A stretch of DNA of 49,025 nucleotides from positions 133,598 through 182,622 of the forward strand of contig JABIEQ010000011.1 in assembly GCA_018651085.1 (NCBI GenBank), written 5' to 3'. Position 1 is the first letter of the stretch; each line of letters opens with the position of its first letter. This document shows positions 882-24,899 of this stretch, in pieces. The translations under genes and the position numbers were made by a program. The stretch is from Candidatus Magasanikiibacteriota bacterium (GTDB lineage: Bacteria > Patescibacteriota > Patescibacteriia > Magasanikbacterales > UBA922). The notes beneath the pieces are model-generated. The model had not been told where the DNA came from, ran no database searches, and saw only the letters and a list, made by a program, of their open reading frames with translations.

Positions 882-2249
882 TTATACAGAAAATGCATCA
901 GTAAAAAATGAAGGGAGGTCTGTTATTGCGATTCGTTCTTGTTCCATAGTATCTCTATCTCGCACTGTTACTCGATGGTCTTCTAGACTCTCAAAGTCTA
1001 CAGTGACACAATATGGCGTACCTATTTGATCTTGGCGACGATATCGTTTTCCAATTGACCCTGTTTCGTCATATTGAGTCATATAATTATACCACAGTTT
1101 TTGTTGTATTTCTTTAGCTAACTTTTGAAGTGGTTCTTTTTTTGATAGTGGAAAAATAGCCATTTTTATTGGTGCAAGTGATTTATGAAATCGAAGGACG
1201 ACTTCCTTATCATGCTTTGACTGATCTGATCCATCTCGTTCATCATACGCGTCAGCAAGGAAGGCGAGAGTTGCTCGATCTGCTCCATCGGCTGTTTCAA
1301 TAATGTGTGGCGTAATTTTTTCTCCTGTTTCTTGATAAAAATACGTCAGATCTTGCCCACTAAACTCTTGGTGACGAGAAAGATCCCAATCTCCTCTATC
1401 ATGAATCCCAGCAAGCTCTTTAAATCCAAGCCCTGGGTAGTTATATTCAATGTCAGTTGCATTCTTTGCGTAGTGTGCTAACTCATCTGGTCTGTGATCA
1501 CGAAAACGAAGGTTCTCTTCTTTTATTCCAAGATCTTTATACCATTGCATCCGTAACTCTTTCCACATTTCAAATATATCTCCTTTTCCTTCTGGATGCA
1601 CAAAATATTGTTGTTCCATCTGTTCAAACTCACGTGTTCTAAACGTAAAGTTTCCTGGAGTAATTTCATTTCTAAATGATTTTCCAATTTGCGCGATTCC
1701 AAACGGTAGTTTTCTTCGCATACTTTGTTGTACATGCACAAAGTTGGTATAAATTCCTTGGCATGTCTCTGGTCGAAGGTAAATTTCATTTGCACTGTCT
1801 TCAAGTGGCCCCATGAATGTTTTAAACATGAGGTTAAAATTTCTTACTCCAGTTAACTCTCCTTCACAACTTGGGCACACCATATTATGTTTTTCCCAAG
1901 TTCCCGGTCTAAAATCTGGCTCAATTCCTTTGTCTTCAAGAAGATGATCAGCTCGCCATCTTTTTTTACATTTTTTACAATCAACAAGAGGATCGCTAAA
2001 TCCTTCAAGGTGACCACTTGCTTCCCAAACACGAGGGTGCATTAAAATTGCGGCATCAAGCCCTACTACATCACCTCTCATTTGTACCATAGCTTTCCAC
2101 CACGCTTTTTTTACATTATTTTTAAGTTCAACCCCAAGTGGACCATAATCATAACTACTTGAAAGTCCCCCATAAATTTCTGAAGATGGATAGATGAATC
2201 CTCGTTGTTTTGAGAGCGACACGATGTGCTCTAATGATGTTTTTTCCAT
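882..2249 (-). CDS. glyQS: Glycine--tRNA ligase, alpha2 (eukaryote/archaea-like) type
   Basis: SEIYGG, YDYGPLGVELKNN, YLRPETCQG, GKSFRNEITPGNFTFRTREFEQME motifs and C-terminal anticodon domain GSIGKRYRRQDQIGTP. Confidence 0.97.
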   Translation of the reverse strand: MEKTSLEHIVSLSKQRGFIYPSSEIYGGLSSSYDYGPLGVELKNNVKKAWWKAMVQMRGDVVGLDAAILMHPRVWEASGHLEGFSDPLVDCKKCKKRWRADHLLEDKGIEPDFRPGTWEKHNMVCPSCEGELTGVRNFNLMFKTFMGPLEDSANEIYLRPETCQGIYTNFVHVQQSMRRKLPFGIAQIGKSFRNEITPGNFTFRTREFEQMEQQYFVHPEGKGDIFEMWKELRMQWYKDLGIKEENLRFRDHRPDELAHYAKNATDIEYNYPGLGFKELAGIHDRGDWDLSRHQEFSGQDLTYFYQETGEKITPHIIETADGADRATLAFLADAYDERDGSDQSKHDKEVVLRFHKSLAPIKMAIFPLSKKEPLQKLAKEIQQKLWYNYMTQYDETGSIGKRYRRQDQIGTPYCVTVDFESLEDHRVTVRDRDTMEQERIAITDLPSFFTDAFSV

Positions 2250-2285
2250 ATGATATTGATGTTAAAATATCTATTTTTTTCTATT

Positions 2286-2310
2286 AAAAAAAGACAGCCT
2301 GTACTGTCTT
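2286..2310 (-). terminator. Intrinsic terminator (attenuator) of the T-box leader
   Basis: Minus strand AAGACAGU-ACAG-GCUGUCUU followed by U-tract; shares AAG with the 3' strand of the antiterminator. Confidence 0.85.
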
Positions 2311-2413
2311 GGGACCCCGAAGGGCGGTTCCACCCAAGTTCTTTTCCTTGAAAAGCACCTTGATGTGTTGTCTATCTCACTCCACAGACGCCACTCTGCT
2401 TCATAGTGAAGAT
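2286..2413 (-). ncRNA. Glycine-specific T-box riboswitch (transcriptional, ultrashort Stem I)
   Basis: Minus strand: AA-CUUGGG-UGGAACC-GCCC-UUCG-GGGU-CCCAAG antiterminator with the canonical 7-nt UGGNACC bulge; stem III CUUUUC/GAAAAG just 5' of it; short Stem I with a GGC (Gly) codon in its loop; overlapping terminator; directly upstream of glyQS. Confidence 0.9.
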
Positions 2414-2419
2414 AAGTCT

Positions 2420-2447
2420 ATTATACGCCTTTTTATATTAGTGTCAA
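2420..2447 (-). promoter_or_regulatory. sigma70 promoter for the T-box/glyQS transcript
   Basis: TTGACA (2447-2442), 16-nt spacer, TATAAT (2425-2420) on the minus strand. Confidence 0.85.
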
Positions 2448-2454
2448 TAGAGCC

Positions 2455-2904
2455 TTATTCTTGTGTTTCTTTTTCTAAAAGTAGAGTCACTGGCCCATCA
2501 TTTACTAAAGACACTTGCATATAGGCACCAAATACACCAGTTTCTACTTTTACATCAGCTTTTTTTAATCGTTCGACCATATATTCATAAAGTGGACGCG
2601 CGATATCTCCTTTTGCGGCATTTGTAAAACTTGGTCTGGTTCCTTTTTTTGCATTACCATAAAGAGTAAATTGTGATACCACTAAAATCTCCCCGTTGAT
2701 GTCTTTTATACTCTCATTTAATTTGCCTTCTTTATATGTAAATATTCTCAGCTTCAATATTTTTTCTACTAACCAATCTACATCATTTTTACTATCACTA
2801 TGCGTTATACCAAGAAATACTAAAACACCGTGAGAAATACTTCCCACAGTGTTATTATCTACTGTTACCTTAGCCTTTTGTACGCGTTGAATAAGTGCGC
2901 GCAT
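2455..2904 (-). CDS. dtd: D-aminoacyl-tRNA deacylase
   Basis: MRALIQRV start, SQFTL and NDGPVT signature motifs. Confidence 0.97.
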   Translation of the reverse strand: MRALIQRVQKAKVTVDNNTVGSISHGVLVFLGITHSDSKNDVDWLVEKILKLRIFTYKEGKLNESIKDINGEILVVSQFTLYGNAKKGTRPSFTNAAKGDIARPLYEYMVERLKKADVKVETGVFGAYMQVSLVNDGPVTLLLEKETQE

Positions 2905-2912
2905 AATTTTAT

Positions 2913-3464
2913 TTAGATGGTCGTAATTTCTTTTTCTTTTTCTTCTCCAATCTTTTTGATTTGTTCGTTATATTCTTTTGTTAGGGTGTCTAGTTCATCT
3001 TGGAAACCATATCGCTCATCTCCATTTATATCTTTCTCTTTTGCGGCTCGATCAATTTCTCCACGAATGTCTTCGCGAATTTTTCGTATGGTAATGCGAG
3101 TATTTTCTAACTTTTTATGAAGCACTTTTATAAGTTCCTGTCTTCGGTCAGCAGTAAGATCAGGAAGCGGTAAACGAATAACTTTTCCATCATTTACTGG
3201 ACTAATCCCTATGTCTGAATTTCTAATAGCATTTTCTATTACTTGCATGAGTGATTTGTCCCATGGGTCAACCGCTAATGTTTTGGCATCAGACACGGTA
3301 ATTGAAGCAACACTTTTAAGTGATTGCTTTGTGCCGTATGATTCCACTTTGATATCTTCAACAAGCGCTGGTGTTGCACGACCAGTTCTAAGACTCGTAA
3401 TATCTGTCTTTAAAAAGTCTATAGCTTTTATAAACTCTCCTTTTCTTTCATCAATAATGGTCAT
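2913..3464 (-). CDS. frr: Ribosome recycling factor
   Basis: LRTGRATP, V.PWDK, NDGKVIRLPLPDLT.DRR motifs; 183 aa. Confidence 0.96.
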   Translation of the reverse strand: MTIIDERKGEFIKAIDFLKTDITSLRTGRATPALVEDIKVESYGTKQSLKSVASITVSDAKTLAVDPWDKSLMQVIENAIRNSDIGISPVNDGKVIRLPLPDLTADRRQELIKVLHKKLENTRITIRKIREDIRGEIDRAAKEKDINGDERYGFQDELDTLTKEYNEQIKKIGEEKEKEITTI

Positions 3465-21920: not shown

Positions 21921-24899
21921 ATGAATACTGAAGACATTCAGGCACTCTTAAATGATAAGAAAAGATCCCTCCTTGAGGCATATTTAGAGCTTCACACGCA
22001 CTTTGAGACGGTTTATGGCCCAAACACCCTTCTTCTTATGGAAGTGGGTTCTTTTTTTGAGATATATGGGGTAGATAATGATAAAGAAACCATTGGAAAG
22101 CCTCGTGAGATCGCTGATATTCTTAATATCCAGCTCACAAGAAAAGATAAACGTGTCAAAGAAAATAATGCAAAAAATCCCCTTATGGCGGGATTTCCCA
22201 CAGCGACGTTTGATCGATATATTACAAGACTTATTCAGGAGAAGAAATATACGATTGTTATTATCCGCCAAAAAGGAACACCTCCTAATATAATTCGTTA
22301 TGTTGATAACATTTTATCACCTGGGGTAAATATTGATTATTGTATTGATCATCAAGATAACTTTATTGCATCAATTATTGTAGAAAAACATCATGATATT
22401 TATTCTATTGGATACGCAGCGATTGATGTGAGTACTGGAAAAACATATCTTTTTGAAACTCATAGTACAAAAGAAGATAAGACGGCTGCATTAGACGAGT
22501 TGTTTCGTTTACTTCAATCACACAATACAGCTGAATTAATTCTCTCTACAAATGGAGAATCTATTGATCAACAAAAAATCCTTGATTATCTTGAGTTTGG
22601 AGAATTTGAACAGGTTCATTTACGACATACCCGAGTACCAATCAGCTATCAAAATGAGTTGTTTAAAAAAGCCTATACGATTGAATCCTTTTTGTCTCCT
22701 GTCGAGTTTCTTGATATTGAAAAAAATCCACTTACATCAGAAGCACTTGCTCATTTAATTGAGTTTATCGTAGATCATGATGCTCGTATTATTGAACAAT
22801 TAAAAAAACCTATTATCCTTGATACATCTCGTTATTTGTATCTTGGAAATAATCCACTTGAGCAGCTCAACATTATCTCGTATGATCCACGTGAAGCGAC
22901 AGTACTTAGCCTTTTTGATAAAACAGTTACAAGCATTGGAAAACGTTTATTTAAAGATCGACTTGAAAACCCCATAACAAACAAGAATGACATCGAAGCA
23001 CAGTATAACCTTTCTGATTGGCTTATACCACTTTCTTCTGAAATTGACACACATCTTAAGAAAGTATATGATCTTGAACGATTATCACGGCGCATTGCGC
23101 TTACCCGTCTTCATCCGTTTGAAATAAATTTTTTGTATGATTCTCTTCTTGCAACGGCTCATATTATAGAAATCATTAAAGAAGAAGAAAATGCGGCTAT
23201 TGAAGAAACATTTCAGACAAAAGCTGGTACTCTTCAAGATTTCATTGCACACATTGAATCAATTTTTAACCTTGATCAAACAAATAAAGTTACAAGACAC
23301 ACCATCACTCGTTCTCTTTTTCAAACAGGGTTCCATCGTGACATTGATGCTCTTATTACTCGTAGAAAAGAACAAGAAGAAAAACTTGAGCAAATTAAAA
23401 CAACTATTGCGACACTTCTTGAAGACAAAAATGGAAAAGATCATACAGACTATATCGGTATTAAACAACTTGATAAAGAAGGGCATTATATCCATATGAC
23501 AAAAAGTCGGTATGCTCTTATTGAAGAAGAAATTAAAAAAAGTTTTGTTTCTCTTAATGGTACGGTATATGCCCTTTCTGATTTTACCTATAAAGTACAA
23601 ACAACGAATGTTAAAATTACGGCACCAATCATTGATCGGATTTCTGAAGAAATCACTCTTATTCAAACACGAATTACCGCTCTTACAAGAGAGCTTTTTG
23701 ATGAACAACTCCGCTACATTCAAACCACTTTTTCTCATCAATTAGATATATTTACTGACTCTCTTGCTAAGATTGATGTTGCTCTTAGTAATATAAAATC
23801 ATCCTTGCAACATCGCCTTGCCCGTCCTACTATTATTGATACAACAAAAGATTCTTCTTATCTATCTTTAGATGACCTTCGACATCCTCTTGTTGAGACA
23901 AAAGAAGAACAAGGCATTTATATTCCAAACTCTCTGGTCCTTGGTTCAAAAGAACACTATACTGATCAAGATAAACTGTCTGTGATTACCACTCAATCTT
24001 CTGAAAGTATCTCTGGACTACTCCTTTATGGGATTAATGCTAGTGGAAAATCATCTCTTATGAAGAGTCTTGGTATTTCTATTATCCTTGCTCAGAGTGG
24101 TCTTTATGTTCCTGCATCATCAATGACCTTTTCTATTTGTACAGAAATTTTTACTCGTATCGTTGCGAAAGATAATTTTGAAAAAGGTCTTTCTTCTTTT
24201 GCTGTTGAAATGGTTGAATTAAAAAACATCTTTAATCGCTGCACATCAAAAAGTCTTATATTAGGAGACGAAATAAGTCATGGGACAGAAACGCTCTCAG
24301 CTATTTCTATTGTTGCTGCTACAATTAAACGCCTTACTGAAACTGGTTCACTCTTTTTGTTTACGACGCATCTTCACCAACTACATTCTCTCGGTATGCT
24401 TAAAGACAACCCTCATGTAGCAAGTACACATATGAGTGTTCACTATGATACAGCAGCTGATCGGCTTATTTTTGATAGACTCCTTCAGTCTGGAAATGGG
24501 AATAGTGTTTATGGCCTTGAATTTGCTCACTCTCTTCATATGGATCCGGCCTTTTTGAAATATGCTATGGGTATTAGAAAATCACTTGCAAAAGAGTATA
24601 CTGATTTAGAATTGCTCACCAAACAACAAAAAAGTAAATACAACTCAAATCTTATTTTAACAACCTGTGCAATTTGTAAAAATAATGTTGAAGATGTTCA
24701 TCATATTGCTCCACAAAAATCAGCGGATGATCATGGAAACATTACTCATTTCCATAAAAACCACAAATATAATCTTCTCCCCATTTGTAAAAGTTGTCAT
24801 ACTAAGGTCCATGACAAGATTATTCATATTAAAGGGTTTATGATGACAGATAAAGGCTTAGAACTTACATACGAACAAACTGATTCATCTTCTTCGTAG
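21921..24899 (+). CDS. mutS: MutS7-type mismatch repair protein with C-terminal HNH endonuclease
   Basis: Domain I EVGSFFE (FxE), Walker A GINASGKS, SSFAVEM, LGDEISHGT, C-terminal CAIC...DVHHI...N...NLLPICKSCH..VH; start likely MNTED at 21921. Confidence 0.92.
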   Translation: MNTEDIQALLNDKKRSLLEAYLELHTHFETVYGPNTLLLMEVGSFFEIYGVDNDKETIGKPREIADILNIQLTRKDKRVKENNAKNPLMAGFPTATFDRYITRLIQEKKYTIVIIRQKGTPPNIIRYVDNILSPGVNIDYCIDHQDNFIASIIVEKHHDIYSIGYAAIDVSTGKTYLFETHSTKEDKTAALDELFRLLQSHNTAELILSTNGESIDQQKILDYLEFGEFEQVHLRHTRVPISYQNELFKKAYTIESFLSPVEFLDIEKNPLTSEALAHLIEFIVDHDARIIEQLKKPIILDTSRYLYLGNNPLEQLNIISYDPREATVLSLFDKTVTSIGKRLFKDRLENPITNKNDIEAQYNLSDWLIPLSSEIDTHLKKVYDLERLSRRIALTRLHPFEINFLYDSLLATAHIIEIIKEEENAAIEETFQTKAGTLQDFIAHIESIFNLDQTNKVTRHTITRSLFQTGFHRDIDALITRRKEQEEKLEQIKTTIATLLEDKNGKDHTDYIGIKQLDKEGHYIHMTKSRYALIEEEIKKSFVSLNGTVYALSDFTYKVQTTNVKITAPIIDRISEEITLIQTRITALTRELFDEQLRYIQTTFSHQLDIFTDSLAKIDVALSNIKSSLQHRLARPTIIDTTKDSSYLSLDDLRHPLVETKEEQGIYIPNSLVLGSKEHYTDQDKLSVITTQSSESISGLLLYGINASGKSSLMKSLGISIILAQSGLYVPASSMTFSICTEIFTRIVAKDNFEKGLSSFAVEMVELKNIFNRCTSKSLILGDEISHGTETLSAISIVAATIKRLTETGSLFLFTTHLHQLHSLGMLKDNPHVASTHMSVHYDTAADRLIFDRLLQSGNGNSVYGLEFAHSLHMDPAFLKYAMGIRKSLAKEYTDLELLTKQQKSKYNSNLILTTCAICKNNVEDVHHIAPQKSADDHGNITHFHKNHKYNLLPICKSCHTKVHDKIIHIKGFMMTDKGLELTYEQTDSSSS

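Follow-up and report, generated by a model that had tools for sequence, protein, structure and literature searches.

A putative minimal T-box riboswitch in front of glyQS, predicted to act by transcription termination, in ultra-small Patescibacteriota

Introduction

Can a T-box riboswitch sense uncharged tRNA while it is being transcribed if it has neither the long Stem I that clamps the tRNA elbow nor a Stem II? This question is raised by a leader of about 128 nucleotides (nt) at positions 2413–2286, minus strand, of a 49,025-nt stretch of DNA (the window; positions 133,598–182,622 of contig JABIEQ010000011.1, assembly GCA_018651085.1) from Candidatus Magasanikiibacteriota bacterium, an ultra-small marine bacterium of the Patescibacteriota. 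The leader stands in front of glyQS, the gene encoding glycyl-tRNA synthetase (GlyRS). A sequence-only reading of this DNA had proposed that it is a minimal glycine T-box of the termination type, with its specifier codon in the apical loop of Stem I. Comparison with related genomes supports this proposal, as the codon, the promoter and the terminator are conserved. Judged from this comparison, the leader is very probably a working T-box responding to uncharged tRNA-Gly and governing glyQS through transcription termination, with the smallest set of parts so far seen for that mode.

Anatomy of the glyQS leader

Downstream of dtd, the minus strand carries a promoter, then the leader and then glyQS. 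The features are the following.

2447–2420, minus strand: sigma-70-type promoter, TTGACA (2447–2442), 16-nt spacer, TATAAT (2425–2420), score 12/12
2409–2377, minus strand: ultrashort Stem I of 33 nt, read from the sequence
U2409-C-A-C2406 with G2380-U-G-A2377, minus strand: outer helix UCAC/GUGA of Stem I
Above the outer helix, minus strand: kink-turn (K-turn) of Stem I, with a 3-nt bulge UAU and tandem sheared-type G2402·A2381 and A2401·G2382, then A2400·G2383
Above the K-turn, minus strand: upper helix of Stem I, 5 base pairs (bp), GCAGA/UCUGU
2394–2389, minus strand: apical loop of 6 nt, GUGGCG, which holds the specifier
2392–2390, minus strand: specifier codon GGC (glycine), in the apical loop of Stem I
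2376–2356, minus strand: linker of 21 unpaired nt carrying GACAAC (ACAA at 2371–2368) and AAGGUG (2361–2356)
2355–2341, minus strand: Stem III, CUUUUC-AAG-GAAAAG, where RF00230 aligns its own Stem III
2338–2308, minus strand: antiterminator aligned by RF00230, with helices A1 (CUUGGG/CCCAAG) and A2 (GCCC-UUCG-GGGU)
2332–2326, minus strand: T-box bulge of 7 nt, UGGAACC, inside the antiterminator
2310–2291, with a U run to 2286, minus strand: intrinsic terminator AAGACAGU-ACAG-GCUGUCUU, 8 bp, from a terminator scan
2292–2286, minus strand: run of seven U that ends the leader
2249–882, minus strand: glyQS, glycyl-tRNA synthetase of 455 amino acids, ATG at 2249
2904–2455, minus strand: dtd, D-aminoacyl-tRNA deacylase-like protein of 149 amino acids (stop codon 2457–2455), directly upstream of the leader

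Each feature that the sequence-only reading had listed was found at its place on the minus strand. The promoter is the top-scoring of seven promoter-like sites within 1800–3000, and its position predicts a transcription start near 2413. The bulge and the G·A pairs at the base of Stem I form a standard K-turn arrangement by the consensus rules for this motif.

Detection and distribution of the leader

At its own thresholds, Rfam gives no match in the leader. A permissive Infernal scan of positions 2200–2500 (301 nt), a comparison to which the sequence-only reading had pointed, returned RF00230 with 22.1 bits against a cut-off of 93 (E = 0.004). This sub-threshold match is confined to the 3' half of the leader, that is to Stem III and the antiterminator, and the upstream part of the alignment runs over the promoter and dtd with low posterior probability. 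RF00230 has no match at E ≤ 0.001 in the whole source genome (947 kb, 17 contigs, 99% complete), and the case was therefore built on comparison. The model exceeds its cut-off in none of the 107 genomes of the family, 25 of which have a sub-threshold match (E ≤ 0.01); in a sample of the phylum, it exceeds the cut-off in 5 of 151 genomes and reaches E ≤ 0.001 in 50. Canonical T-boxes exist in this phylum, and the short forms described here look like reductions that would have occurred within it.

The glyQS gene was located with the GlyRS protein in 41 related genomes and the DNA upstream of it was read. In 15 of the 41, all 15 belonging to the family of the source organism, GGGUGGAACC is preceded by the same short hairpin, and GGGUGGAACC itself is unchanged in 15 of 15 leaders. 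A covariance model, R1, was made from 15 related leaders with the pairs of Stem I and of the antiterminator alone; Stem III, which two MAFFT alignments had misaligned, was kept out of it and treated separately. In the source genome, R1 has two matches, the glyQS leader (83.6 bits) and a second one at 32.9 bits. It matches 88 of the 107 genomes of the family, 60 of these at 47 bits or more (glyQS-type), as well as 96 of 151 sampled genomes of the order, which come from only three of its ten families, and 22 of the 151 genomes sampled evenly across the phylum at E ≤ 1e-4. A scan of genome contigs for the pattern TGGC-N7-GA-N30-60-GGGTGGAACC returned at least 120 stretches, almost all of them chance occurrences in GC-rich genomes.

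From the 60 strong R1 hits, 55 were fetched and aligned (G103, G046, G096, G085 and G042 were left out), and the N-terminus of GlyRS lies downstream in all 55. Unless another number is given, the counts below refer to these 55 leaders.

Conservation and covariation of the structure

Over the 17 modelled pairs, 97.9% of the cells are standard pairs, against 74.8% after shuffling. Compensatory double changes occur in 15 of the 17 pairs, including all eight pairs of Stem I, and the pairs of A1 and A2 in the antiterminator covary. The covariation score is 0.699 against 0.237 for shuffled alignments (none of 500 shuffles reaches 0.699) and does not exceed 0.113 when the partners are slid by 1–3 columns. 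As the alignment of the 55 leaders was fitted to R1, a recount was made on a structure-free MAFFT alignment of 15 leaders, which gave 94.5% of paired cells and a covariation of 0.592 against 0.237. The covariation among related glyQS leaders by which the sequence-only reading proposed to judge its model is thus strong in Stem I.

The GA/GA signature of the K-turn is kept in 54 of the 55 leaders. A Stem III helix of at least 4 bp abuts the antiterminator in 50 of them, with 47 distinct 5' arms; a few of the automatic picks of this stem are wrong, but inspection by eye reveals a Stem III in the sequences concerned. It is absent from the five others (L031, L033, L037, L072 and L090), where nothing separates the flanks AGUG and AAAU and a long terminator spans the whole 3' strand of A1. 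Four further glyQS leaders (L093, L102, L103 and L249) have large insertions. These take the form of an additional hairpin, placed either inside the specifier loop or so as to separate Stem I from Stem III, of an elongated A2, or of a Stem III region that reaches about 70 nt.

The compensation in the helices and the conservation of the bulge, the glycine codon, the promoter and the 3-nt overlap described below extend over 55 leaders from many genera, and therefore point to purifying selection on the whole design.

The specifier codon and its tRNA

In all 55 leaders, a glycine codon occupies the same position of the apical loop (GGC in 49 and GGA in 6), so that the loop position which the sequence-only reading had assigned to GGC is kept in orthologous leaders. 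The loop is 6 nt long in 40 leaders and 5–9 nt long in 54; the base that precedes the codon is U in 50, and the base that follows it is A in 33, U in 12, G in 9 and C in 1. At the codon itself only synonymous switches between GGC and GGA are seen, which is the behaviour predicted of a specifier.

Among the 36 tRNA genes of the source genome are those of tRNA-Gly(GCC) and tRNA-Gly(UCC). Both have U73, which the A of the UGGA bulge matches as had been proposed, and neither encodes CCA. Loss of tRNA-Gly(GCC) was considered as the origin of the GGA specifiers and rejected, as five of five GGA genomes tested keep this tRNA; GGA leaders would therefore monitor the other isoacceptor. The tRNA-Gly(UCC) gene adjoins that of tRNA-Gly(GCC) in four of the five GGA loci tested.

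The terminator switch

A terminator-like hairpin followed by a U run ends all 55 leaders; 51 of these were found automatically and four by eye; among the latter, three hairpins are long and the fourth has its U run interrupted. In the leader of the window, the trinucleotide AAG at 2310–2308 is shared by the two competing structures, being both the last 3 nt of A1 and the first 3 nt of the terminator. The same overlap of 3 nt is found in 49 leaders, where the 5' arm of the terminator starts with (A/G)AG followed by AC. The shared trinucleotide has two alternative partners, CU(U/C) in the T-box strand and the CUU that opens the U run, and when it is held in A1, these 49 leaders are left with a hairpin of 4–6 bp that no longer abuts the U run. 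The sequence-only reading was right that an antiterminator and a terminator are both present; the terminator, however, is not a textbook one and overlaps the antiterminator by just 3 nt.

For the whole leader of the source genome, the terminator fold has a computed energy of -26.1 kcal/mol and the antiterminator fold one of -24.3 kcal/mol. With a gap of 1.8 kcal/mol, the two folds are nearly balanced, and four pairs with the 3' end of the tRNA, together with stacking, could tip the balance. The U run ends 37 nt before the ATG and no ribosome-binding site lies inside the switch; control would therefore be by termination rather than by sequestration.

Absence of the elbow platform and of Stem II

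Above the K-turn, 54 of the 55 leaders have just five pairs and a loop of 5–9 nt, and there is therefore no AG bulge and no distal loop of an elbow-binding platform. In the window, the stop codon of dtd is about 45 nt upstream of Stem I and the promoter fills most of this gap, which leaves no room upstream for a long Stem I. A promoter scoring at least 8/12 lies within 70 nt upstream in 52 leaders; in 37 of these 52 its -10 box ends 9–11 nt before the first pair of Stem I, and where the distance is larger, the leader usually has an additional outer helix. The upstream genes vary among relatives. A start far upstream that would supply a canonical Stem I, the outcome that the sequence-only reading had named as damaging to it, is thus not indicated, since the promoter directly precedes Stem I in most relatives.

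Across the leaders, about 6–27 nt separate Stem I from Stem III, and no conserved pairing was seen in this linker among the 55. With only 21 nt, the linker of the leader in the window can accommodate neither a Stem II nor a IIA/B pseudoknot. The proposal that this element lacks both the elbow clamp and a full Stem II is accordingly borne out, whereas the GAU/AUC mini-stem and the CAC:GUG pseudoknot proposed for the linker are confined to this sequence, as just 11 leaders have CAC among the first 20 bases of the linker. What is conserved in the linker is ACAA, found within 14 nt after Stem I in 36 leaders, and A(A/G)AGUG, found before Stem III in most. The ACAA motif is also present in the leaders of thrS, the threonyl-tRNA synthetase gene. 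No pairing or covarying partner for it was found in the 55 leaders, and it may represent a new kind of contact with the tRNA or with the codon helix.

Short leaders of thrS and relatives across the phylum

Most of the R1 hits with lower scores are leaders of thrS. At four of the 21 weaker loci that were read (L095, L096, L098 and L109), the same K-turn, 5-bp helix and apical loop are present and the loop carries ACU or ACC followed by A; three others (L093, L102 and L103) are the glyQS leaders with large insertions mentioned above. Outside the order, 19 R1 hits were read. Twelve of them have the short hairpin and a codon fitting the gene behind it, five being glyQS leaders with GGC and seven thrS leaders with ACC, ACU or ACA; five more have the short hairpin in front of a gene that was not recognized, and two are different. 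The short thrS leaders of other families of the phylum include L237, L241, L243 and L250, and the one of L237, which lacks Stem III, spans only 86 nt when counted from Stem I through the antiterminator. The tRNA-Thr(GGU) and tRNA-Thr(UGU) of the source genome have U73, which fits the UGGA bulge of thrS leaders. As read from these sequences, the codon in the loop tracks the regulated gene over two amino acids and many lineages, and this is the strongest independent support for the proposed decoding.

The source genome also has a second T-box, in front of its own thrS (G000:C3, about 23,850–24,100, minus strand; L043, 1450–1700). Its Stem I is long and includes a conserved CCCAGC, an AG-bulge-like CAGGGAAAGA, the specifier ACC within AUGGUACCAC and, distally, the hairpin GGUCAUAGACUGAGAGCC; Stem III is lacking. 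RF00230 misses it as well at E ≤ 0.001.

Two side observations concern these threonine systems and the wider phylum. ARAGORN reports in the source genome a 92-nt tRNA-Thr(AGU) (G000:C7:37970–38061, minus strand) with a long insertion after the anticodon arm, which is unusual for a bacterial tRNA-Thr. In addition, some leaders with a short Stem I in other parts of the phylum, thrS leaders among them, carry an apparent IIA/B-like pseudoknot with an F-box-like CCGUUA but no Stem II: L234, L236 and L238 (CGG...GGCCGUUAUC), and L240, L244 and L246 (CACCCAGGAGCCCAGGUGUAUAUGGGCC). The combination of a short Stem I with such a pseudoknot in the absence of Stem II would be an intermediate architecture.

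Comparison with known T-box classes

The closest known relatives by gene are the Bacillus-type glyQS T-boxes (B. subtilis, Geobacillus kaustophilus and Oceanobacillus iheyensis glyQ/glyQS; RF00230). They share with the leader of the window the gene, the GGC specifier, the UGGAACC bulge suited to U73, the lack of Stem II, the K-turn at the base of Stem I and a single-stranded linker. They differ from it in having a Stem I of the canonical length, roughly 85–100 nt, instead of 33 nt, an AG bulge and a distal loop that clamp the elbow, and a codon in an internal Specifier Loop with an S-turn instead of in the apical loop. Nor is the sharing of only 3 nt between terminator and antiterminator a trait of theirs. 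Passages of PMC11404447 also describe for them a Stem III with purine flanks and an antiterminator/terminator switch, as here. According to the same 2024 study, the glycyl T-boxes characterized previously all lack Stem II, which is ascribed to the strength of the GGC:GCC pairing; those T-boxes all have long Stem I's, unlike the present leader. Since short threonine versions exist, the strength of GGC:GCC cannot be the whole explanation here.

The closest relatives by shape are the ultrashort T-boxes of actinobacterial ileS (translational class II, including the Mycobacterium ileS structures), as described in the 2020 review by Zhang (PMC7583486). They too have a short Stem I with the specifier in its apical loop and no elbow-binding motif. 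They keep, however, a Stem II and a IIA/B pseudoknot that are essential for tRNA binding, whereas no Stem II and no conserved pseudoknot are present here, and they act by hiding the Shine-Dalgarno sequence, in contrast to the hairpin and U run that end 37 nt upstream of the ATG in the present leader. The amino acid (here glycine, and threonine in the sister leaders) and the phylum also differ. The leader of the window thus joins a decoding hairpin of the actinobacterial type with the Stem II-less layout and the terminator of the glyQS class.

In the passages of PMC7583486 that bear on the mode of action, transcriptional T-boxes "generally require" a long Stem I with an elbow-binding motif, which allows faster capture of the tRNA before the terminator is made, most translational T-boxes lack this motif, and tRNA binding by a truncated Stem I is slight when Stem II is absent. 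Read from its sequence and those of its relatives, the element considered here appears to be a structural variant of the T-box riboswitch, widespread in one phylum, that runs contrary to the current generalization on transcriptional T-boxes.

No description of this reduced class was found in the literature searched on T-boxes in the candidate phyla radiation (CPR), Patescibacteria or Saccharibacteria and on ultrashort Stem I, a comparison outside of which the entries of TBDB lie; the papers met on ultrashort Stem I and on ileS T-boxes with Stem II deal with known classes. Together with the failure of RF00230 to pass in any genome of the family, this agrees with the suggestion of the sequence-only reading that the class is uncatalogued. 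According to passages of the TBDB article (PMC7778990), class I elements were collected with RF00230 and the class II model was run only on Actinobacteria and on class I hits with a truncated Stem I; leaders scoring about 20–40 bits are probably absent from that database.

Alternative explanations and points of weakness

The most serious alternative accepts the T-box and holds that its two visible contacts are insufficient, so that a helper would replace the missing contacts with the elbow and Stem II, either the ACAA linker docking on the codon–anticodon helix or on the tRNA, or a protein. Certain Bacillus T-box K-turns do bind protein, and the K-turn is retained in all leaders but one. ACAA follows Stem I in about two thirds of the glyQS leaders and recurs before thrS, with no evident partner. 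By itself, a truncated Stem I shows barely detectable tRNA binding, according to passages of PMC7583486, and K-turns are discussed as protein-binding sites in Bacillus T-boxes in passages of PMC11404447. However, no K-turn-binding protein of the L7Ae family (YbxF/YlxQ-like) was found in the 99%-complete source genome, ACAA is missing at that place in 19 of the 55 leaders, no covarying partner was found for it, and the linker of L004 is only about 6 nt long before the GUG motif. A helper of this kind is possible but is considered somewhat unlikely.

It has also to be asked whether any tRNA with U73 could be sensed through its free 3' end alone, with Stem I serving some other purpose, such as RNA stability or an operator function for GlyRS. 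The antiterminator is indeed the best-conserved part of the leader, and in Escherichia coli thrS, hairpins resembling anticodon arms act as synthetase operators. Here, however, the loop carries a codon rather than an anticodon, which excludes a mimicry of tRNA-Gly, and the codon follows the gene, with glycine before glyQS in 55 of 55 leaders, threonine before thrS and changes that are synonymous only. This explanation is improbable.

Still less probable is an ordinary T-box with a long Stem I, the 5' half of which would come from a transcript starting in or before dtd. The start site of the leader is a prediction, and the long Stem I of the thrS leader in the same genome is likewise missed by Rfam. 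Against this, the dtd coding sequence ends at 2455, the 12/12 promoter occupies most of the gap before Stem I, relatives with different upstream genes keep a promoter that ends 9–11 nt before Stem I, and the short hairpin closes on itself by covarying pairs with the codon in its loop. Finally, a decaying T-box remnant with a constitutive or inert terminator, as might be imagined in reduced genomes (about 0.6–2.0 Mb in the listed samples) where the element is missing from some relatives and Stem III from five leaders, is very hard to reconcile with compensatory changes in every helix and with an invariant bulge and a conserved codon, promoter and overlap over 55 leaders.

Several points nevertheless weigh against the leader being a working T-box of the termination type. 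The competing helices overlap by only 3 nt, less than in textbook T-boxes, and the gathering cut-off of RF00230 is far from reached. R1 finds no match in 19 of the 107 genomes of the family and in seven of the ten families of the order, and the element is therefore dispensable. A pyrimidine follows the codon in 13 of the 55 leaders, whereas in known T-boxes this base is as a rule a purine. None of the ten sequencing runs listed as containing this stretch is an RNA run, all being DNA from marine or seawater metagenomes with five possible sources. From the view taken in the passages of PMC7583486 cited above, weak and slow binding of the tRNA is to be expected unless it is otherwise helped.

Proposed mechanism

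The scheme that follows builds on the observed anatomy, conservation, covariation, codon–gene match and bulge–discriminator match, from which we infer tRNA binding, switching and a compensation for the absent elbow and Stem II contacts. The working of the leader as a terminating T-box can be pictured in this way: transcription would start just 5' of Stem I, and the K-turn and the 5-bp helix would then display GGC in the 6-nt loop to the anticodon of tRNA-Gly, GCC, with which it would pair. The antiterminator would follow after some 20 unpaired bases and Stem III, and the UGGA of its bulge would pair with the free U73-C-C-A end of an uncharged tRNA. This pairing would keep A1 closed and withhold AAG 2310–2308 from the terminator, so that the leftover 5-bp hairpin would miss the U run and the polymerase would read through into glyQS. 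With a charged tRNA, or with none, AAG would instead pair with CUU where the U run begins, completing the 8-bp terminator and stopping transcription.

A broader proposal, in which we place about even confidence, is that these leaders form a distinct class of terminating T-boxes of the CPR (Patescibacteria) in which the tRNA is read by two short contacts, the loop–loop pairing of codon and anticodon, offered by a hairpin no larger than an anticodon arm, and the pairing of the 3' end in the antiterminator.

Genomic context

The dtd gene adjoins the glyQS leader upstream in the relatives L003, L031, L032, L036 and L037 also, and this pairing of a tRNA-proofreading gene with that of GlyRS may be more than coincidence. 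The listed genomes measure 0.7–1.4 Mb in the order and 0.6–2.0 Mb in the phylum sample. No uL30 match over the cut-off was found in the source genome, and bL9 is present. CPR genomes often lack uL1, bL9 and/or uL30, according to PMC9297842, and the pattern seen here is consistent with an organism of the CPR/Patescibacteria.

Implications

A platform-less, Stem II-less hairpin coupled to a terminator is found for two amino acids in many lineages of one phylum. If the two-contact class is real, neither the elbow clamp nor Stem II would be needed for co-transcriptional sensing of tRNA, and its extreme members, devoid of Stem III and about 86 nt long to the end of the antiterminator, would be the minimal natural T-box. 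The kinetic question that then arises is how the tRNA is captured in time, for which slow polymerases, pausing or a new contact are candidates. If the leader works as read here, it would set a new lower bound for the recognition of a tRNA and of its charging state and would provide a very small natural scaffold, of about 100–130 nt, for structural and engineering work. It would also mean that standard annotation, with Rfam passing in 0 of 107 genomes of the family, misses a layer of synthetase control in ultra-small bacteria.

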